Virus record (IMG/VR): IMGVR_UViG_3300042987_003796
Location: 20,022 to 84,021 of that record
DNA: 64,000 nt
Direction: 5' to 3' (one strand)
DNA from: a virus
In this document: positions 724-53,814 of the stretch, in pieces
Position numbering within the stretch: position 1 is the stretch's first letter
How the letters are laid out: every line of letters starts with the position of its first letter
Position numbers and translations under genes: made by a program
Notes under the pieces: model-generated
What the model saw: only the letters and a program-made list of their open reading frames with translations
The model's database searches: none
Told to the model about the DNA's origin: nothing

Positions 724-3700
724 ATGGCTGATAATTTGACTACGGCAACAATTGATGTAAGAGCAAACACAAGGGGCTTAGAAAAAGATATTCTAAAAGC
801 TCTTAAAACCGTTGAATTTTCTGAGATAAATACAAAGAAAAGTTCGCAGGCTCTTGGTAGAATAACTGGACAGGTTTCTGAATTTAATAAAAGCCTGGAA
901 GCGTCTAATGCTCGCGTAGTTGCTTTCGGTGCGTCTGCTGGGGCTATTTTTGCTGTCGAAAAAGCTTTTTCAAGCTTAATTTCTTCTACGATAGAGGTGC
1001 AGAAAAAACTTACAGATGTAAATATTCTTCTTAATTTATCTTCCTCTGGTTTGCAAAAATTTGGAGATAGCTTATTTGATATAGCTAAAAATACAGCTCA
1101 GTCTTTTTCTACTGTTGCAGACGCCGCTACCGAGCTTTCTCGTCAGGGTCTTGGCGTTGAAGAGACATTAAAAAGAACAAATGCCGCGTTAGTTTTGACT
1201 AGACTCAGCGGACTTGATGCAAAATCTAGCGTTGATGCGTTGACCGCTACATTAAACTCTTTTGCTGGGTCTGCGCTTGATGCGGTAGAGGTAGTTAATA
1301 AATTAGCAAACGTTGACGCCGCTTTTGCTGTTAGTTCTGCTGATCTTGCCAATGCTATTAGTCGCGTTGGTTCTACTGCTGTTGATGCTGGGGTATCCTT
1401 AGATGAATTAATTGCTTTAGTTACTTCTGCTCAACAAACTACGGCGAGAGGTGGAGCTGTAATTGGTAACTCTTTTAAAACTATTTTTACGCGTTTGCAA
1501 AGAGGAAAAGTTCAAGATTTGCTTGGCTCTCTTGGGGTCGATACAACAGAAGGACAAAGTGCGATAAGTTTATTACAACAACTTGCGGCAACTTATGATA
1601 CTCTTGGAGCGGCTCAAAAATCTTACGTTGCAGAGCAGGTTGGTGGCGTTTTCCAAATCAACATTTTAAAAGCAGCTTTATCTGATTTGGGTAAGGAGTA
1701 TAGTATTTTTGGAAGAGCTTTAGATACTTCATTAAGCTCAACAGATGAAGCTATTAGAAGAAATGAACTTTTAAATCAAACTATTTCTGCCTTATCTAGT
1801 CAAGCCGTTTCTGGATTGCAGCAGGCGGCGAGCAAAATCGGCTCTATTGTTTTTGAACCTAACGCAAAGGGTTTTCTTTCTGGTTTTAATAATTTATTAG
1901 ATTCTTTTAATAATATAGATGCAGAAAGCGCTGGTGGAAAGTTAATGACTGGATTTTTTAAGGGTATTGGTGACTTTATATCTGGTCCTGGAGCAGTTTT
2001 AGCTACCGCTGTTCTTGTAAAATTATTTTCCAATTTAGCAAAATTTGCAGCTGGGTCAGCAAAAGAATTACTTGGAACTAATAAAGCTGCACAACAACAG
2101 GCTGCTATAGAGCAAAGTATTTTAAGTATACTTCAAAAGAATAGTCAATTTACTAGTCAGATCTTGAGTGGTAAAATGACAACAGTTCAGGCAGAAAAGG
2201 AATTATTGACTTATTTAACTGCTCAATCAAATATCCTTAGGGAGCAGGAAAGATTAAGCAAAATTATTGGTGCAAATTTGATGACAGCTGGAGTTAGTAT
2301 TGGGTCAAGTGGTATTCCAATTGTAGCTGCATCAAAAGGTAAAAAGGCTGCTTCATCTGGATTTATACCAAACTTTGCATCAGATCAGGCGATTGGTCAG
2401 GCGATGGAGAATGCTGGAGCTAGACAGCATGGATACAAAGCTGGAAAAGCTAAAAAAACAACTATTCATGATGGTAATGGAAAATCATTCAAATCTTTTG
2501 TTAATAGCAAAGAGGATGTAAAAACTTTTACTAATTCCGCTGGCAAGAAAGCTACAATAGTTCGTCCTCCAAATGGGTTTGGTGAAAATACTCAATATGC
2601 TGCTGGTGGATTTGTTCCTAATTTTGCAAAAAATAAAAATGAAGATTCGATAAGAAAAGGTGTGTTGTTTGAAAAACGTTTGAATAAAGCCCTTAGTGGA
2701 TCTGCCTCGTTTTCTCCTAATGCTCCAATGGATTTTCCTCTCCCAACTGGTTATGGAAATGACTATGAGATAAGAAGAAAAATTGGAATTAGTGATGCTT
2801 CTATATATGGAGATGCAAAGCTTACTAGAAGTAGAAAAAGCGAACAGAGTTTATTAGACAAATATTTAAGAACGCCAGAGGGAGTTAAGGATTTTCTTTC
2901 AGCAAAAGAAACTTCTAGAGGGTTTATTAATTTAAATCCGAATGGATTATCAATGTTGTTTTCTGGGTCTGGATCTGATTCAAGGGGCATATCTTATATT
3001 TCCAGTATAAATACTCAGCTTTCTGCTGGCGCAAAACGTTTGATTAGTTCAAGATTTGGTAAAAATCATAAAAAAAGCAGAACATTGGCAATGCCTTATA
3101 TTGCTGATAAAATAAACGAAAAAAATTTATCTGGATTAAGTTCTGGTTTTATTCCTAATTTTGGAAAAATGCAAGATCTTTATAAAAATACGAAGATGCG
3201 CGAAGGAAAGGATGATCCTTTTGGCAAAAGAGCTGCTAAGGCTAATTTAGCAGCTAAAAAGGGTATTCCAATTAAAGATCTTGGAAACTTGCCATATACA
3301 ATGATTCACCCTGGTGGTGGTAGTAATTTTCAAGCCTCTGCTAGTTATACTAAAAAAGATAAAAAAACAAATTCTTCAACTCAATATGTTGGAAAAATAT
3401 GGACTGCTGGATTAGATGCAAGCAAGTTAAATCGTAAAACTGTTCAAGATAGAGTTGGAGATGCGCTAGTTACAGAAGCAAATAATTTAACAAAAATTTT
3501 CAATCCTTCTGGGAGTGGGCAATTTAGTAACTATAGTCAGTTGTCAAATACCGGATCTGTATTTAGTGCAGCTGGCACTGTTTTTGAGTCAGCGGTCAGA
3601 AAAGCGTTTAATGTTTCTGCTCAAGGTCAAGGAGATAGGATAGATTTTCCAAATCCATCCTCTGAGCTTAGATCTTTCTTTGGAAATGCTCCAGGACCTT

Positions 3701-6700: not shown

Positions 6701-9700
6701 AAAATGCTTCCCCTGTTCTTACTGATAAGAGCGCGGGAACAGAAAATCAAGCTATTGCATTAATGAAAAGCCTAGCTCAGTCAGAGAGTCTTACAGTAGA
6801 TCAAAAAGCTAATTTTGAAAAGATTATTGATTCTTTTGCTTCTGCGGCGGCGCAAACAGATTTAGGAGCAGTTTCTGAGGCTTTCGTTGAAGGAATTCAG
6901 TTAAAGCCTAAATCATTTGAAGATGTTCAAAAAGCTCAAGAGGCGTATAAAAAATCCCAAGAAATAAACAATGCAAAAATAAAAGAAGAGATTGCTATTA
7001 GAGAAAAAGCAAATGCTTCTTTATTGCAGCTTCAATCTGAAACGGAAGCTATATATACTAGCTTCAATGATTCTCTTGAAAGATTTATTTCTAGTGTTGA
7101 AACAGCCGCAAAAATGCGAGCTGCGTCAGTAGAGTTCAAGCAAGAATTTTATTCTGAAGGCGGAGTTCCAAGCGCCGCTGAGTCGCAAAAAGAAAAAAAT
7201 ATAGTTCAGGCTTCGAGGGATAATTTGACGGTTGATATTTATAAATCTCAAGTTGAGGCTTCTAATAATTTTAATTCCGCTGTTAAGGATTTAGTTGGAG
7301 GTCTTGATATTGACATAGCAAAGCTTGGCGTCGGCGGTCAGTCGATGGATCAGCAGAATCAGCTGCTTGGCGTACAGTCTTCTATACAGAAAGCATTGTT
7401 GCCAATTCAGGGGATGATATTAAAGGGAGACTATGAAGGGGCAAGACAAAAAACAAGCGAGGCTCTTTCTGGATTAAAGCCAGAAGAAGTTAGTGCGGTT
7501 GGCGTTGACGCGATAACAAAAGTTGGTCAGCAATTAGATCAAACATTGCAGGATAGCGCTAGGAAATTAGATCAGATTAAACAAAATTCACAAAAAGATC
7601 TTGCTATTCAAGCTCAGCAATTAGTTTTTCAAAGAGCTATGTCTAAACTTAGTCAAGCTCAAGGCTTTGGTGGAACAGACATAAAAGGTTTAATTACAGA
7701 TAATGGAGGAGAGTCATTTCAGCAGGCTATTTCTTCTTTGAAAGATCTAAAAACGTTGGGATATAATCAAAAAGATTTGCAAAAGGGGTACGTAAAGGGC
7801 GGTGGAGCTGAAACATATGGAATAAAAGATAAAAAAGCTAATGCTGCGATGAGCGGAAAAGTTATTGATTTTTATGGAGCTGCCAGTAAAATAATCGGAA
7901 GTCCTGTTTTGTCTACCCAATCTAAGGATTTTGGCGCTTTAGCTCAAGCGGTCTCAGACCAGATAAGAAACCAGATGGATAAGTTCAAGGCTGCTGGAGA
8001 AGGCGTTGTTGACCCTGCTGTTTTTAGTAGAATGGAAAAAGCTCTTGCCACATTAGGTGGGGGAGATATGGTTGCTCAGTTAAAAATATTTAAAAATATT
8101 GGAGTTGCAGATGTTGGTGGAAAGCAAGTAATGGATGAAGCTTTAAAAACTTATAGCGGTGGTCAGTTTGCAAATTTGAGCCCAGAGCTTAAGAAGGCAT
8201 TTGAAAGCACTACAGATGAAGGGGCTGCTGCTACTTTATTATTAGTCGCTGTACAAGATAAGCAAACCCAAAGTCTAAATACAGGATTTAATTTTTTATC
8301 TGGCATTGGAGGGCAAACAAATGACTTATTGTCAAAACAACCGGACGCAATCGCTGCAGCAATAGGAGCGGTTTTAGAAAAAGGTAGAGCCGATTCTGAG
8401 GCGCAAAAAGTTAATCGAGAAGCTGCGTCGCTAGACAAGCAGTTCTTTGATAGTAAGGCTAAACTGAAAGAAGCTAATAAAGGCGTCGATTCAGCTCAAG
8501 CCCAAGTTGATTCTATTGTTGAATCTTTAGGTGGAAATGCTAGTGGATCATCTATTGAGGATTTTATTAAATCCATGCAGGTTAGTCAAAAAGATAAAGA
8601 TAAGGCTAAGTCTATAACGTCTTTAGGTAGGAATGAATATATTAATTATAAAACATCGCTGGAGATGACTCCAACAGAAATATTGTCAGGGTTACCAACT
8701 CCAAGGAGCGACAAAGCCAAACAAGAGTCGGCAAAAAAATATGACGAAGCTGTGGCTCTTCAAGAAAAAGTAAAAAAACTTGATGCATTGAAAGCCGCAT
8801 CTCAGCAGGTTAGTAGTAAAAAATCTGAAGCTGTAGGTATTTCTAATGAAATAAAAGAAATCAATAAAAAATATGATGCGCTTGCGCCAGATATTCAAGC
8901 TAAAAACGATGCCGCAAAAAAGGCTTCTGAAGTTGCTGCGCAAAGCAGAAATCTAGTTCTTGATAAGAAGCCATTGCAGGATTCTATGGATTATTACGCA
9001 AATGATAAAAAAGCTAGAGAGGCTGCTTTAGCTCAATCTTTGGCGACAGAAAATCTCAAAAAAACAAAACAGCAAAAACAAACTCTAGATAGAACGTCTG
9101 GGGCAGAAAAGGCTATGAGCCCTACTGGAAAGCTAGATACTTATGAAAATATAGCGATTACTAAAGCTGGCGGCGCAAACCAAGCTGCTTTCCAAGATTT
9201 ATTGTCTCAAATGGTTGTGCCGAGTTTTGATAAATTTAAAGATGTTTATGCGTCTCTTGGAGAAGAGGGTGGAGCAAAAGGCGCTTACGAAAGAACCATA
9301 AATGAAATGATTGGACCAGCTCTTTCCCAAAAGCTGCCAATTGTAGAATCTGGATCTCAAGGTCAGCAAATAGCTTCTGCTATTACAGAGGGCATTAAGC
9401 AAGCTTCCGCCTCAGTGGTTGGTGGAGGCATTACACGCGAAGAAAATAAATCGTTGATGAGCAAACATGGGTATGTTGAAGGAGAGGGTTGGAAAAATGA
9501 AAGCGGTAAGGCGGCTTATTCTGAAGAACTTAAAATGTTAAAAGAACAAAAGCAAGCTCAGCAGCAGTTGTCTTCACAGACTAGCGCAAATAATTTACAA
9601 AAAAATGCAGAGCAAGAGCAGGCGAAAAAACAAGAAAGCGAGAAAGCTAAAGCTCAATCTGCTCAGCAAGATCCTACTCAACTTATTTCGAGTATCCTGA

Positions 9701-19449: not shown

Positions 19450-20688
19450 TTATAATTGTCCGGATATTTGTTCGCACCACCCCTTAGAAGATGAATGAGG
19501 CCAAACTACCCATTTTTTAGGTAAGGTTTCGGTATTGAACTCTCTCCATATTTTACAGTATTTGTCAGGATCTCTCATCATTCTTGAGATTTCTGCTTTA
19601 TCTGCGTCTTTTCTAAAGACTGTTTCTCCTTTTTCGTCATGGAAAGCTACAACCCAGAACTCGTAATCTTTTTCTGGAACTTGACTGTATTGAATATCTA
19701 TGCAATGTTTAAATATTTTTAAAAATGATTTTTCATAGTCTTCTTCATTTTCATAAGAAGGGTTAGGAGGATAGTTTTTATCTAAAGTAAACTTTTGAAC
19801 AGCCCTCCTTTTAAAGGAGATGCCAGCATATCTTTCATAATCTTGAAGAGTTCTTTCTTTTCCAAATCCATATGTTCCAAAATCTATATTTTCTGTGTTC
19901 TTTTCCATTCCGAAAAGAATGCGGTTTCTTTTATGGCATTTGGAGTTTGCTTCCCACCATTGTTTGTGGTCATCCCAATGTTTTGTTCTGCCTTTTCTTG
20001 TATACTCGTGCCACGCTATGATTTTATGTGGATGAAAAAGATCGTATCCATGAGTATATGCCCTGACAGCTATTGATATTTCCTCTCCGTGAAAATAATA
20101 TTCTGGATCGTGCTGAACGTCCTTGCAAAAGGAGCCGTCTGCAAAGCAAAAGTGAGCAGAATAAAATCTTGATTTAACTGGCTCATTTAAGTCTTTAAAA
20201 TTAGGAATTGAGGCGGGTAGAAAAAAAACTATGCCTTCTGGCGTGAATCTGTCAAAGTCCATTCTCCACGGGACTTTTTCTCTTCCATTTGGGTCGTTGT
20301 CTGGATCAAAGCTTGATATGTATCCAGTAAGAAGAGGTTTCTTATATCCTTTTGTTCGAAGTTTTTCAATCATCGAGATTAATTCTTCGTCCCAATTTTC
20401 TACGAATCTATGATGACTATCTAATTGAAGAGTATAAGTTTCGTTATTATATTCTTGCTGTATTTTATTTCTTGCCCAGCAAGCTCCTTTTGACTCTTTA
20501 TAGGGTATGTCAAGAATTTTAAATCTTGAATCATTTTTATATTTATCTAAATTTTCATTTTCGCCGTGTTGCCAAGCAATACAAAATCTTAAATTTTCTG
20601 GATGTTTTGCATTTTTTATGCAATCATCTAGAGTTGGAATTAATTGAGGATCTTTGTATGAGGCTATTTGAATAAATATAGTAGACAT
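19450..20688 (-). CDS. Glycosyltransferase, GT60/Skp1 GlcNAc-transferase-like (GT-A fold)
   Basis: TIFIQIASYKDP, SKGACWAR, YTLQLDSHHRF..NWD, FHGEEISIAVRAYTHGYDLFHP. Confidence 0.8.
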   Translation of the reverse strand: MSTIFIQIASYKDPQLIPTLDDCIKNAKHPENLRFCIAWQHGENENLDKYKNDSRFKILDIPYKESKGACWARNKIQQEYNNETYTLQLDSHHRFVENWDEELISMIEKLRTKGYKKPLLTGYISSFDPDNDPNGREKVPWRMDFDRFTPEGIVFFLPASIPNFKDLNEPVKSRFYSAHFCFADGSFCKDVQHDPEYYFHGEEISIAVRAYTHGYDLFHPHKIIAWHEYTRKGRTKHWDDHKQWWEANSKCHKRNRILFGMEKNTENIDFGTYGFGKERTLQDYERYAGISFKRRAVQKFTLDKNYPPNPSYENEEDYEKSFLKIFKHCIDIQYSQVPEKDYEFWVVAFHDEKGETVFRKDADKAEISRMMRDPDKYCKIWREFNTETLPKKWVVWPHSSSKGWCEQISGQL

Positions 20689-50702: not shown

Positions 50703-50942
50703 ATGAACCTAGCAGTATGGCACTCAAATAAGTCCCTCATTATGCAGGAGATGAGGGAGCAATTAAAAAAGAAATCAAAGCCCGGAGAGGCAACCCTCTC
50801 AAGGAAAGAGGCGAATAGAACATGGAGAGAAGAAATTCTTGGCATTCTATCGGAAGACCAAAAAAGAGAAGTAAAAGCAAAGCGGCAAGAAAAATCCAAA
50901 AAGGATAGATTTAGAGATCTTAACAGTACGGAAGATGAATAA
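50703..50942 (+). CDS. Small basic hypothetical protein
   Basis: 79-aa ORF overlapping the start of thyX. Confidence 0.45.
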   Translation: MNLAVWHSNKSLIMQEMREQLKKKSKPGEATLSRKEANRTWREEILGILSEDQKREVKAKRQEKSKKDRFRDLNSTEDE

Positions 50943-51564
50943 TAATTCCGTTGAATTAATAGGCTATTATGGATCCGATGAAGTAATAGCCTGTTCTGCC
51001 TGGACCAGCACTTCGAGAAATATAACAAGCGAAAAAAGAGACAGGATACCAAAGCTTATTAATGATCTATGGAGCAATGGTCATGAGACCCCCTTTGAAA
51101 AGGGCATAGTTCATTTTTTAGTTAATTGCGACATAGCTTCTCATGTTCATTTATTGAAGCATAGAATTTCTAGTATCAATGCAGAGTCTGCGAGATACAA
51201 AGAATTAAAAGAAGATAAATTTCATATTCCTGACGACTGGACAAATGATTGGAAGGAAAGACTGCAGTGGTATACAGAACTTGGCAATGTGTATTATCAT
51301 GACTGTTTAAAAAAATTAGAACCCCTTTTGGGAAGGAAGAGAGCAAAAGAATCGGCTAGATTTTTTAAAACATATAATAGCCAGATTGAATGTGACATTA
51401 TGTTTAATATGAGGTCTTTCGCAAATTTTCAAAAACTAAGAAATAGCCAGCATGCCCAAAAAGAAATTAGAGAGATCGCAGAGCAAATGCTTTTTTTAGT
51501 AGAAAACATTCAATACAGCCCATTTAAATATACACTAAACGCTATTTCTTCTTATAATAAATGA
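50935..51564 (+). CDS. thyX: Flavin-dependent thymidylate synthase
   Basis: GHETPFE, LLKHR..S.NAESARY, ESARFF, LRNSQHAQKEIR. Confidence 0.9.
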   Translation: MNNNSVELIGYYGSDEVIACSAWTSTSRNITSEKRDRIPKLINDLWSNGHETPFEKGIVHFLVNCDIASHVHLLKHRISSINAESARYKELKEDKFHIPDDWTNDWKERLQWYTELGNVYYHDCLKKLEPLLGRKRAKESARFFKTYNSQIECDIMFNMRSFANFQKLRNSQHAQKEIREIAEQMLFLVENIQYSPFKYTLNAISSYNK

Positions 51565-52055
51565 ATAAGTCTATGCATAAAAACCCGAACATGTCTAATA
51601 TAGATGAAAAGAAGATAGAAAAAGAGTGGCTTCAGATTAAAAAAGATGGTTACACGAGCGGTGCAGATATTTATATCAAAGAGACAGAATATAAAGGATT
51701 AGGAGTATTTGCAAATAGAGAAATAAAAGCTGGCGAAATCATTGAATATTGTCACGCTATTGTTTTAGACTGGAGACAAAAATATATACACGACGCCTCA
51801 ATTAAGAAGTATGCATATTGGCACACCTGCAGTTGCTTAGACTGCAAAATGCACGGGGGCACAGGATTGATATTGCTTGGGTGCGGTTCAATATACAATT
51901 GTTCGGATTTGGAAGATTTAAAAAACGCAGATTTTTATCTATTTCCTGGTCTGAATTTAGGACTTTTCAAAGCAAATAAAAACATAAAAAAAGATCAAGA
52001 AATCTTAACTTGGTGGGGACAAGGATATTATGACTTTTGGTGCAAAAAGAAATGA
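51561..52055 (+). CDS. SET-domain protein
   Basis: KGLGVFANREIKAGEIIE, GSIYNCS, ANKNIKKDQEILT. Confidence 0.75.
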   Translation: MNKSMHKNPNMSNIDEKKIEKEWLQIKKDGYTSGADIYIKETEYKGLGVFANREIKAGEIIEYCHAIVLDWRQKYIHDASIKKYAYWHTCSCLDCKMHGGTGLILLGCGSIYNCSDLEDLKNADFYLFPGLNLGLFKANKNIKKDQEILTWWGQGYYDFWCKKK

Positions 52056-52240
52056 ACGAATCAACTGATAATTATAGCTACTTAACCGAAATAAGTGAAA
52101 TTATAGACTCAATTTCTTTAATGAAGGACAAAACCCTTGATCATTTTTATGAAAATGAGCTTTTAGCTACTAAACTCATGTTAGATTTAAATGAATTAGA
52201 AGAAGAGGCTCAGCTCTTAATAAAAGAGTTTGACTTTTAA
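52052..52240 (+). CDS. Small acidic hypothetical protein
   Basis: ATG overlaps the stop codon of the SET gene. Confidence 0.45.
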   Translation: MNESTDNYSYLTEISEIIDSISLMKDKTLDHFYENELLATKLMLDLNELEEEAQLLIKEFDF

Positions 52241-52259
52241 AAACAAAAGTGTATATAAT
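52230..52259 (+). promoter_or_regulatory. Promoter for the RNA locus (sigma70-like, overlapping GTGTA)
   Basis: TTGACT (52230) - 18 bp - TATAAT (52254); GTGTA at 52249. Confidence 0.55.
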
Positions 52260-52266
52260 CTAATAT

Positions 52267-52485
52267 AGATTAGTCCCGATTAGGCAGGGATAATAAAAGT
52301 TATTCGTCCAGCGGGTTAAAAACCCGGTAGCCAATGAATGCTTTTACTAATCTGGCGAGACCGTGAAGTAGCCGACAGTCTTTTTAGACGCGGTTTAGCC
52401 AGAGGCGTCGCGGGTAAACGCCTCATTTACATTTTATGTTCTGCCAAAGGCAGAAATGCTATAGAGGCTTAACCATTGAGCCAGC
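52267..52485 (+). ncRNA. Candidate structured non-coding RNA of unknown family
   Basis: GC-elevated region with no annotated ORF and multiple stems: AGATTAGT/ACTAATCT, CGGGTT/AACCCG, TGGC..ACCG/CGGT..GCCA, GAGGCGT/ACGCCTC, TTCTGCC/GGCAGAA, GGCTTAA/TTGAGCC. Confidence 0.55.
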
Positions 52486-52518
52486 GATGCAAATCAGTGG
52501 TAACGATCTTTGAAATTT

Positions 52519-52974
52519 GGGGGCGTACTGGTTTCGATTTGTTGCTGAAACTAAAAGCGCATGTAGAGGTTAATCGACGGCCTCTTTAAAATCGATTAAA
52601 AAACTAAATGCAGACGATGATATGTCTGATCTTTTAGCCGAAGCTGAATACATCCTCAACAATGCCGATGAGTTTCTCGGTAGCGTTGAAGAGGAGTCCT
52701 ACGCTCTCGCCGCTTAAAAGCCTAACGGTAATCCTCTAAATCCGTTTTGAATTGCAGAGGTTCTTGCATGAGATGACTAGTGTGGTAAAATTCAGTCATA
52801 GGTGATATGCGGTCTTTATTCACGCATATAGGCAGACATAAAACTCGGTTAGTATAACCAAACAGCCTTTTGTCTTCGTTATCGTAACGATAGCTGAAAT
52901 GTTAAAATACTCAAACATGTAACGACCTTTTAGCGTAAAAAATAAAGACAGGGGTTCGACTCCCCTCGCCTCCA
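52519..52974 (+). ncRNA. ssrA: tmRNA
   Basis: 5' GGGGGCG..TGGTTTCGA pairs with 3' CGCCTCC-A giving the G3:U alanine identity; T-arm AGGGGTTCGACTCCCCT; PK1 (AGAGG/CCTCT, TAATCGA/TCGATTA); tag ORF 52610-52717 ending YALAA*; CCA not encoded. Confidence 0.93.
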
Positions 52975-53016
52975 CTTTATATATAAATAATTTAATTATT
53001 AGAGATAATATAAATT

Positions 53017-53814
53017 ATGAAAAAAATACATTTTGTTTCTGGCTTGCCTAGAACATGCTCTACTTTACTTTGTAATATATTGTCACAAAATCCAAACTTT
53101 CATGCTACCTCAACAAGTGGATTGTCTGAACTTGCATCTAGCCCCAGACGCATTATAGCAACAACACAAGAATTTAAATCAATGAATCCAAAAGATTCAG
53201 AAAAAATCCTTATTGACTGGGTTAGGGCTGGAATTTTAAATGCTTATAATTCTATAACAGATAGACCAACTGTTTTTGATAAAAGTCGCGGCTGGCTAGG
53301 GCATCTTGATCTACTTTTTCAAGCAATTCCTTCAGCTAAAGTAATTATTCCGGTAAGAGATTTAAGGGGGATACTTTCTTCTTTTGAAAAAAGAAGAAAA
53401 AAATACCCAGCATTTGCCTGGGACGAAGAAGAAAATATTATAAACTTTTCTACAATTGAAAAAAGAGTAAATAATTGGCTAAATTCTACAAGGTTAGGCT
53501 TACATCTTGAAAGATTACAAGAAGCATGCAAAGCGCATAAAGAAAAATTATTTTTTGTACACGCAGAGAGATTAACACTAGACCCTCTATCAGAAATAAA
53601 AAAGATATACGAGTTTATTGAAGAAGATTATTTTGAGCATGATTTTAAAAATGTAAAACAATACACGAAAGAGCATGATGCTCAATGGTGGCCTATAGGC
53701 GACCACACGATTAGACCAGAAGTAAAACCATTAAAACAAGAATGGAATGAGATTCTTGGGTTTGAATTAAGCAATTCTATTCATCAAAAACTAGGCTGGG
53801 TGAATCACCTTTAA
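53017..53814 (+). CDS. Sulfotransferase family protein
   Basis: FVSGLPRTCSTLL (PAPS-binding loop), FDKSR.W, VRDLR.ILSS. Confidence 0.75.
   Translation: MKKIHFVSGLPRTCSTLLCNILSQNPNFHATSTSGLSELASSPRRIIATTQEFKSMNPKDSEKILIDWVRAGILNAYNSITDRPTVFDKSRGWLGHLDLLFQAIPSAKVIIPVRDLRGILSSFEKRRKKYPAFAWDEEENIINFSTIEKRVNNWLNSTRLGLHLERLQEACKAHKEKLFFVHAERLTLDPLSEIKKIYEFIEEDYFEHDFKNVKQYTKEHDAQWWPIGDHTIRPEVKPLKQEWNEILGFELSNSIHQKLGWVNHL

Follow-up and report, generated by a model that had tools for sequence, protein, structure and literature searches.

The question raised by this locus is what a phage encodes in the roughly 250 nucleotides (nt) that separate a promoter from the gene for its transfer-messenger RNA (tmRNA, ssrA). 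The stretch, initially placed at positions 52267-52485, lies in a window of 64,000 nt (positions 20,022 to 84,021 of IMG/VR virus record IMGVR_UViG_3300042987_003796; coordinates without a locus name are those of the window), which is part of an 84-kb phage record that is about 55% complete. The initial annotation had taken it for one novel phage non-coding RNA co-transcribed with ssrA. The stretch is indeed unannotated, structured, non-coding and without an Rfam family; it is not one domain, however, but consists of three separable RNA families, designated A, B and C. All three are new to Rfam 15 and to the named GenBank phages, and the genomic kind to which they belong has been known since phage T4.

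Three folded modules upstream of a phage tmRNA

The folded RNA begins right after a strong sigma-70-type promoter, as had been noticed earlier, and lies on the strand of the tmRNA that follows it. The promoter hexamers are identical in two relatives, L002 and L009 (sequence comparison); judging by the spacing, transcription would start at about 52265-52267, 1-3 nt 5′ of module A. A terminator scan between the promoter and the tmRNA found none. At 52300-52499 the G+C content reaches 0.47, whereas the 200-nt bins of 51900-52299 have 0.28-0.30 and those of 52900-53199 have 0.29-0.32, which bears out the GC elevation reported at first. The + strand of 52255-52520 folds at -81.2 kcal/mol, compared with -64.5 +/- 4.7 for shuffled sequences (z = -3.59; 0 of 200 shuffles as stable). 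The minus strand of the same region is likewise well folded (z = -2.89), so the strand is not decided by folding energy alone; G-U pairs in the helices are consistent with the + strand only. The open reading frames (ORFs) overlapping the stretch are all short, encoding 44, 25 and 37 amino acids (aa) on the + strand and 36 aa on the - strand.

The stems named in the initial annotation are all present in the sequence and its minimum-free-energy fold, displaced by at most 1 nt: the multibranch domain, in which 52267-74 with 52346-53 encloses TCCC/GGGA and CGGG(TT)/(AA)CCCG, the long stem 52353-52401, and the hairpins 52402-24, 52439-55 and 52466-82. One arm, 52295-52305 with 52336-52345, had been missed, and the structured stretch extends to about 52501 instead of ending at 52485. 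The features of the locus are as follows:

52230-52259, + strand: sigma-70-type promoter TTGACT-18-TATAAT (consensus scan, 11/12 matches)
52267-52353, + strand: module A, with four helices (covariance model R2)
52267-74 with 52346-53, + strand: helix P1 of A (fold, covariation)
52275-77 with 52287-89, + strand: helix P2 of A, with the 9-nt loop GATTAGGCA at 52278-86 (fold)
52295-52300 with 52340-45, + strand: helix P3 of A (fold, covariation)
52302-05 with 52336-39, + strand: helix P3b of A (fold)
52312-16 with 52322-26, + strand: helix P4 of A (fold)
52338-52472, + strand: 44-aa ORF (ORF list)
52353-52424, + strand: module B, a junction plus a hairpin (covariance model R1)
52353-56 with 52398-52401, and 52358-64 with 52390-96, + strand: outer helix of B (single-sequence folds)
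52365-77, + strand: junction of B, containing a mini-hairpin with the AGCCG loop at 52370-74 (fold)
52378-81 with 52386-89, + strand: helix P2 of B, a variable hairpin (fold)
52402-07 with 52419-24, + strand: helix P3 of B, 6 base pairs, with the 11-nt loop TCGCGGGTAAA at 52408-18 (fold, covariation)
52427-52518, + strand: module C and the immediate tmRNA leader (comparison of seven sequences)
52439-55, + strand: hairpin C1 of C (both-side changes in three pairs, seven sequences)
52466-69 with 52479-82, + strand: stem S1 of C (invariant in seven sequences)
52472-78 with 52495-52501, + strand: stem S2 of C (100% paired in seven sequences, with one double and two single-side changes)
52505-18, + strand: leader segment GATCTTTGAAATTT, the last 14 nt, retained before most relatives' tmRNAs
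52519-52977, + strand: one-piece tmRNA, ssrA (ARAGORN; Rfam RF00023, 119 bits, E = 6.8e-46)

For module A, a pattern built on the initial 90 nt of the stretch picked up 40 loci (34 judged real by eye), and a search of 52 sources with model R2 recovered 36 copies (29 distinct sequences; 84-114 bits) in uncultured phage contigs. In the alignment fitted to model R2, from which the pairing counts are taken, 97.7% of the cells are paired and 10 of the 21 pairs show changes on both sides. This covariation score was reached by none of 500 shuffles, and slid controls were only 40-53% paired. Independently, MAFFT combined with RNAalifold identified five covarying pairs. The internal loop is conserved, with GTCCAG on one side and GTAGCCAAT opposite.

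For module B, model R1 recovered 16 copies (15 distinct; 68-80 bits), plus two weak chance matches, in 93 sources. Helix P3 is 98.9% paired, with both-side changes in four of its six pairs. The outer helix of the window-type sequences is out of register in both alignments of B (the MAFFT alignment A3, which also misplaced the junction, and the model-based alignment A6). As this understates the pairing counts of the outer helix, single-sequence folds were used instead; the helix forms in 13 of 13, from differing sequences. In L011 only the middle 75 nt recur, 3′ of an ORF, with three helices rebuilt from other bases and the loops identical. This copy was found with a transition-tolerant pattern that did not fix the 11-nt loop of B, and the loop is still present. 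Seven copies in tRNA arrays were found without fixing AGCCG; six of them carry it, and the copy L056/57 has TGCCG. Matches that appeared unrelated by eye, mostly G+C-rich coding DNA, were dropped from the pattern scans for the B loops (17 of 22, 16 of 20 and 2 of 3) and from that for A (6 of 40).

Between the window, L002 and L009, compensatory changes turn G-C into A-U in the hairpin 52402-24 of B and GC/GC into AU/AU in the hairpin 52439-55 of C. The hairpin 52466-82 of the initial annotation contains a real stem, S1; its columns are invariant, whereas the covarying stem is S2. S1 and S2 together would form a possible H-type pseudoknot. In A, B and C alike, helices are maintained by compensatory changes among homologues, the comparison that had been suggested at the outset. 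All three also present an unpaired AGCC motif, and they may therefore share a binding partner.

Order and surroundings of the modules in related phages

When the region and two variants of B were compared by blastn with 50,697 GenBank phage records, nothing matched. A synteny search via relatives of the SET-domain and sulfotransferase genes found one close locus, L002, and five others without tmRNA. Two close relatives, L002 and L009 (the latter in the same record as L008), share the layout of the window; they came from scanning IMG/VR and metagenomes by synteny and by DNA patterns. Further patterns led to L015, L018 and L036, to seven loci with B inside phage tRNA arrays and to one copy on a contig of a metagenome-assembled genome. 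According to habitat labels, taken from the run table only, the stretch is found mainly in freshwater metagenomes.

The order A-B-C-tmRNA is shared by the window, L002 and L009. L018 lacks C (A-B-tmRNA), L054 and L072 have B-A-C-tmRNA, L061 has C-D-A-tmRNA with a further module, D, and in many loci A occurs without B and C. It is because the modules are reordered, dropped and found singly that the stretch is described as a chain of three separable modules.

Downstream of the 29 distinct copies of A, the tmRNA follows at 13-14 nt in 13, C and then the tmRNA in two, and B, with or without C, and then the tmRNA in four; in nine, a U-rich tract and an ORF come next and no tmRNA occurs in the following 260 nt, and one copy is at a contig end. 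The stretch would be co-transcribed with ssrA, as first proposed. Linkage to ssrA is not obligatory, as shown by these nine copies and by the copies of B that stand before a tRNA (six) or after an ORF (two). Upstream of A lies module D in 18 distinct copies, module B in two and a promoter only in nine; in L079 an 11/12 promoter is located about 140 nt upstream of the D-A unit.

Six of the 15 distinct copies of B stand directly before a tRNA, five of them according to ARAGORN and one by eye. The distance is 6-10 nt to tRNA-Ala in L051, L052, L053 and L056/57 and to tRNA-Asn in L055; in L097 the tRNA-like start was recognised by eye only. The gap to the tRNA upstream of B is 4-6 nt in L051 and L055; in L052 it is 24 nt and in L053 156 nt. 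B is set into tRNA arrays at tRNA-like spacing. Elsewhere it precedes A (two loci), is flanked by A on one side and by C or the tmRNA on the other (four loci), stands alone after the stop of an ORF (L011 and L015) or is found at a contig end (L036). Promoter and terminator scans around the stand-alone copies in L011 and L015 found no consensus. The ORF that follows B in L011 (about 2000-2610, minus strand) resembles, by eye only, a free-standing homing endonuclease.

Several relatives (L081, at about 6883-7622 on the minus strand, L059, L068 and L082) carry, 5′ of A, about 700 nt without a long ORF that are conserved between contigs and contain more modules; module D, which begins GTCGGACGGG, is one further module of this non-coding island. 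Two tRNA-shaped RNAs were also observed, one of 99 nt in L055 (5467-5565, + strand) and one of 121 nt in L079 (10050-10170, - strand). They have normal acceptor, D and T arms, while an insert of 45-65 nt replaces the anticodon arm; they score 45 and 60 bits with the Rfam tRNA model.

The tmRNAs of L002 (3116-3573) and L018 (259-795) have a centre about 90% identical to that of the window (52519-52977) and a tRNA-like domain that differs at both ends. The upstream modules are about 95% identical between the window and these two loci, and this pattern suggests recombination inside the tmRNA gene. Genes flanking the locus (50935-52240 and 53017-53814) encode ThyX (Thy1, 111 bits), a SET-domain protein (37 bits) and a sulfotransferase (61.6 bits). 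A 67-aa ORF, which matched no family, also flanks the locus, and its C-terminus recurs just 5′ of the promoter of A in L060-type contigs (by eye). SmpB and tRNA were searched for in the 84-kb record, at its completeness of about 55%, and neither was found.

Known RNAs compared with the modules

The initial annotation had proposed a comparison with Rfam using Infernal; with Rfam 15 at gathering thresholds, tmRNA is the only family in the whole window, and the stretch itself is assigned to none. A permissive scan of 52150-52560 (E <= 10) returned four matches, namely three at chance level and the start of the tmRNA. The best of the former is Guanidine-I (the ykkC riboswitch), with 18.5 bits against a gathering threshold of 63 and E = 0.45; only the tmRNA start has a better E-value. 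This candidate was rejected, as its alignment (52252-52332) begins in the -10 region and skips the covarying helices P1 and P3 of A. Rfam searches of 21 related loci gave no family for A, B or C, and neither GOLLD nor ROOL was matched there or in the window. GOLLD and ROOL are single RNAs of 500-800 nt, often found beside tRNA genes and first known from lake metagenomes; they are phage-borne and highly structured, as the modules are, whereas the units described here are of 70-95 nt and freely combined. It is very improbable that the stretch represents a diverged known family (a ykkC-type riboswitch, RNase P RNA, GOLLD/ROOL or a 6S-like RNA) or a gene for a small protein. The faint Guanidine-I match and the 44-aa ORF would speak for it. 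The former reaches into the promoter and stays far under its threshold, no other family matches the stretch at E <= 10, and the 44-aa ORF fits poorly with compensatory stem substitutions and with modules that are deleted and reordered irrespective of reading frame.

Possible mimicry of ribosomal RNA (rRNA), RNase P RNA and 4.5S RNA was assessed against E. coli RNAs only (rrnH, rnpB and ffs). Local alignments of A, B and C with 16S, 23S and 5S rRNA, rnpB, ffs and the window's own tmRNA were at shuffle level (z <= 2.6), and the initial annotation was right to see no likeness to RNase P or signal recognition particle RNA, for which Rfam gives no match either. Family profiles gave E = 0.77 for A against 23S 1276-1298 and E = 1.3 for C against the 3′ end of 23S, and no match for B. 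The likeness of the window's A to 23S 1276-1298, equalled by 2 of 200 shuffles, was set aside, since the stem differs in most copies of A and the profile gives only that E-value. Other suspected likenesses (RNase P RNA, 4.5S RNA, the 16S 530 loop, the L1 stalk and the 3′ ends of 23S and 16S) were likewise at shuffle level for A, B and C.

The closest known kind is the pair of stable RNAs of the T4 tRNA cluster, by analogy of genomic logic and without homology. The T4 annotation places rnaC (species 1, 139 nt) and rnaD (species 2, 119 nt) within the tRNA cluster; they are structured non-tRNA RNAs in head-to-tail arrangement with the tRNA genes of the phage, and host tRNA-processing enzymes presumably set them free. 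A structured non-tRNA RNA inside a phage tRNA or tmRNA unit is likewise found for B in L051, L052, L053, L055 and L056/57, and for A, B and C in the window. Local alignment with rnaC and rnaD gave z <= 1.1, and models R1 and R2 have no match in the T4 tRNA region. Unlike the T4 RNAs, the modules stand at the head of a tmRNA, differ in arrangement from one phage to the next and come from uncultured freshwater phages. A limited text search of the literature found no paper describing these modules.

Possible roles of the modules

By analogy with rnaC and rnaD, it is estimated, with a probability of about 0.5, that A, B and C are small stable RNAs derived from a tmRNA or tRNA precursor and acting in trans. 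The stretch would be the 5′ part of the tmRNA precursor; it holds three autonomous folded modules, each an uncatalogued RNA family of its own in a large group of uncultured, mainly freshwater phages. RNase P maturation of the 5′ end is established for tmRNA in general; here, transcription would begin at the promoter 52230-52259, and host RNase P would presumably cut at 52518/52519, which would create the tmRNA 5′ end and free the upstream RNA. The modules would then survive as small stable RNAs, in one piece of about 250 nt or as separate fragments, and would act in trans on a partner. An action in trans is favoured since modules occur without a downstream RNA gene and are traded singly, B occupies tRNA-like slots and the arrays carry insert-bearing tRNA-shaped RNAs. 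A position 6-10 nt before the next tRNA is one from which tRNA processing would release a tRNA-like product, and the insert-bearing RNAs are in line with small trans-acting RNAs being routinely expressed from tRNA operons.

A weak hint of expression comes from contigs of four metatranscriptome libraries, which were placed on 51900-53300. Contigs of X15 and X17 span 52371/52393-52540 plus most of the tmRNA, and those of X15 cover neither flanking ORF. As the contigs derive from relatives with other upstream modules, the gap that X15 leaves at 52276-52369 and the low coverage by X17 are uninformative. One X15 contig joins window position 52975, at the 3′ end of the tmRNA, to 52518, immediately 5′ of the tmRNA start, via 15 other letters; this could reflect a tandem or permuted copy in the relative, a circular form or an assembly artefact.

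Several points weigh against trans-acting stable RNAs. No partner or target was identified for A, B or C. A and B abut without a spacer, so that there is no obvious nuclease site between them. The tmRNA lies within about 170 nt 3′ of A in 19 of the 29 distinct copies, which also fits a role in cis. With no consensus promoter or terminator found near them, the B copies of L011 and L015 may be 3′-untranslated-region elements. The invariance of the B loops is partly built in, because the loops were partly required by the search patterns. The RNA-library contigs differ from the window by 18 and 11 letters and give no ends, strand or level.

A cis-acting leader that serves the downstream untranslated RNA genes, its modules having no life of their own, is less probable, though it carries appreciable weight. 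Such a leader might protect the 5′ end, guide folding or processing, or confer resistance to Rho-dependent or intrinsic termination, as the boxA/boxB leaders of rrn operons and HK022 put do. Long untranslated operons are natural targets of Rho; A would begin 1-3 nt after the start of transcription and lies 13-14 nt from the tmRNA in 13 distinct copies; and GATCTTTGAAATTT resembles the E. coli rrnH leader boxA TGCTCTTTAACAATTTAT, about 14 of 20 positions being shared around 52505-18 by eye. This boxA-like word is not enriched (7 occurrences in the window, with one mismatch allowed, against 5.3 expected) and degenerates in some relatives. HK022 put RNA is described as about 70 nt long, V-shaped and two-stemmed (PMC9378689), and B, of about 70 nt, compares with that description in having two helical domains joined by 0-1 nt near the promoter, at the head of a long transcript. 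An unfiltered search of the complete HK022 genome with models R1 and R2 gave only chance matches (<= 14.9 bits), none near the early promoters or at the put sites, and the two models found nothing on the E. coli rrn leader. In contrast to put and the rrn leaders, the modules also sit where antitermination would have no downstream object, as with the nine A copies and the B copies of L011 and L015 that neither tRNA nor tmRNA follows. Their free loss and reordering would be unexpected for a positioned cis signal. The modules could also be decoys or sponges, each imitating an RNA to which some host protein binds (a ribosomal protein, for example, or an RNase toxin belonging to a defence system); this is improbable. 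In a somewhat wider form, which is still unlikely, the tmRNA and tRNA regions would be 'RNA counter-measure islands', where A, B and C would be trans-acting decoys that phages trade alongside tRNAs substituting for cleaved host tRNAs, and translation factors would be among the host proteins that might be trapped. Protein binding would be in keeping with the unpaired loops conserved in all three modules. In the island upstream of A, positions 408-437 of the L081 segment 7040-7640 (minus strand; about 30 nt) are 81% identical to E. coli 23S 1057-1088 (z = 4.3; 11 of 200 shuffles as good), which lies in the L11-binding region. The same islands contain the abiF RNA motif (RF03085), at 4814-4850 of L059 (- strand; 49.6 bits, gathering threshold 37) and, with 29.9 bits and a 46-nt insert, at 7414-7491 of L081 (- strand). 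Four flanking ORFs of L059 gave no Abi_2 family at E <= 0.01, and the motif may be an orphan antitoxin-type RNA. The abiF-motif RNA is described as binding the AbiF toxin directly and neutralising it (10.1101/2025.04.15.648962). Both the motif and the 23S look-alike are absent from the window, and neither alignments nor profiles show significant mimicry by A, B or C.

A ribozyme reading, in which B and perhaps also A would represent a new small RNA that cleaves itself and helps to cut the polycistronic tRNA/tmRNA precursor, is highly improbable, although B offers some features to go with it: about 16 invariant loop nt, a variable-length hairpin and a possible loop-loop contact between CCG of the AGCCG loop and CGG of the 11-nt loop, which would extend to 6-7 pairs in L054 and L055 (by eye). 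Its location 4-6 nt 3′ of one tRNA, in L051 and L055, and 6-10 nt 5′ of the next recalls theta ribozymes, members of the hepatitis delta virus (HDV)-like class, which are described as sitting within 5 nt of phage tRNAs and as likely to take part in precursor processing (Kienbeck et al. 2024, PMC10879173). Both are small conserved RNA motifs a few nt from phage tRNA genes. By inspection, however, the outer helix of B surrounds two hairpins and a further hairpin comes after it, an order unlike the nested double pseudoknot of HDV-like ribozymes. Neither the HDV-type families nor any other Rfam ribozyme family matched the stretch even at E <= 10; the proposed contact involves invariant bases, and B also occurs where nothing needs cutting (L011 and L015).

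Whichever role applies, extra stable RNAs in phage tRNA clusters have been on record since T4, and there are now three well-supported RNA families with clear consensus folds; the 29 distinct sequences of A show strong covariation. The phages that carry these families are abundant, uncultured and of freshwater origin, and the modules, linked to a phage tmRNA, are shuffled in the way that genes are. Being short, the modules make the old T4-era question open to experiment. If they are mere leader structure, the result would be useful annotation and three candidate Rfam families; if they prove to be decoys or ribozymes, they would lengthen the list of RNA-based phage strategies.

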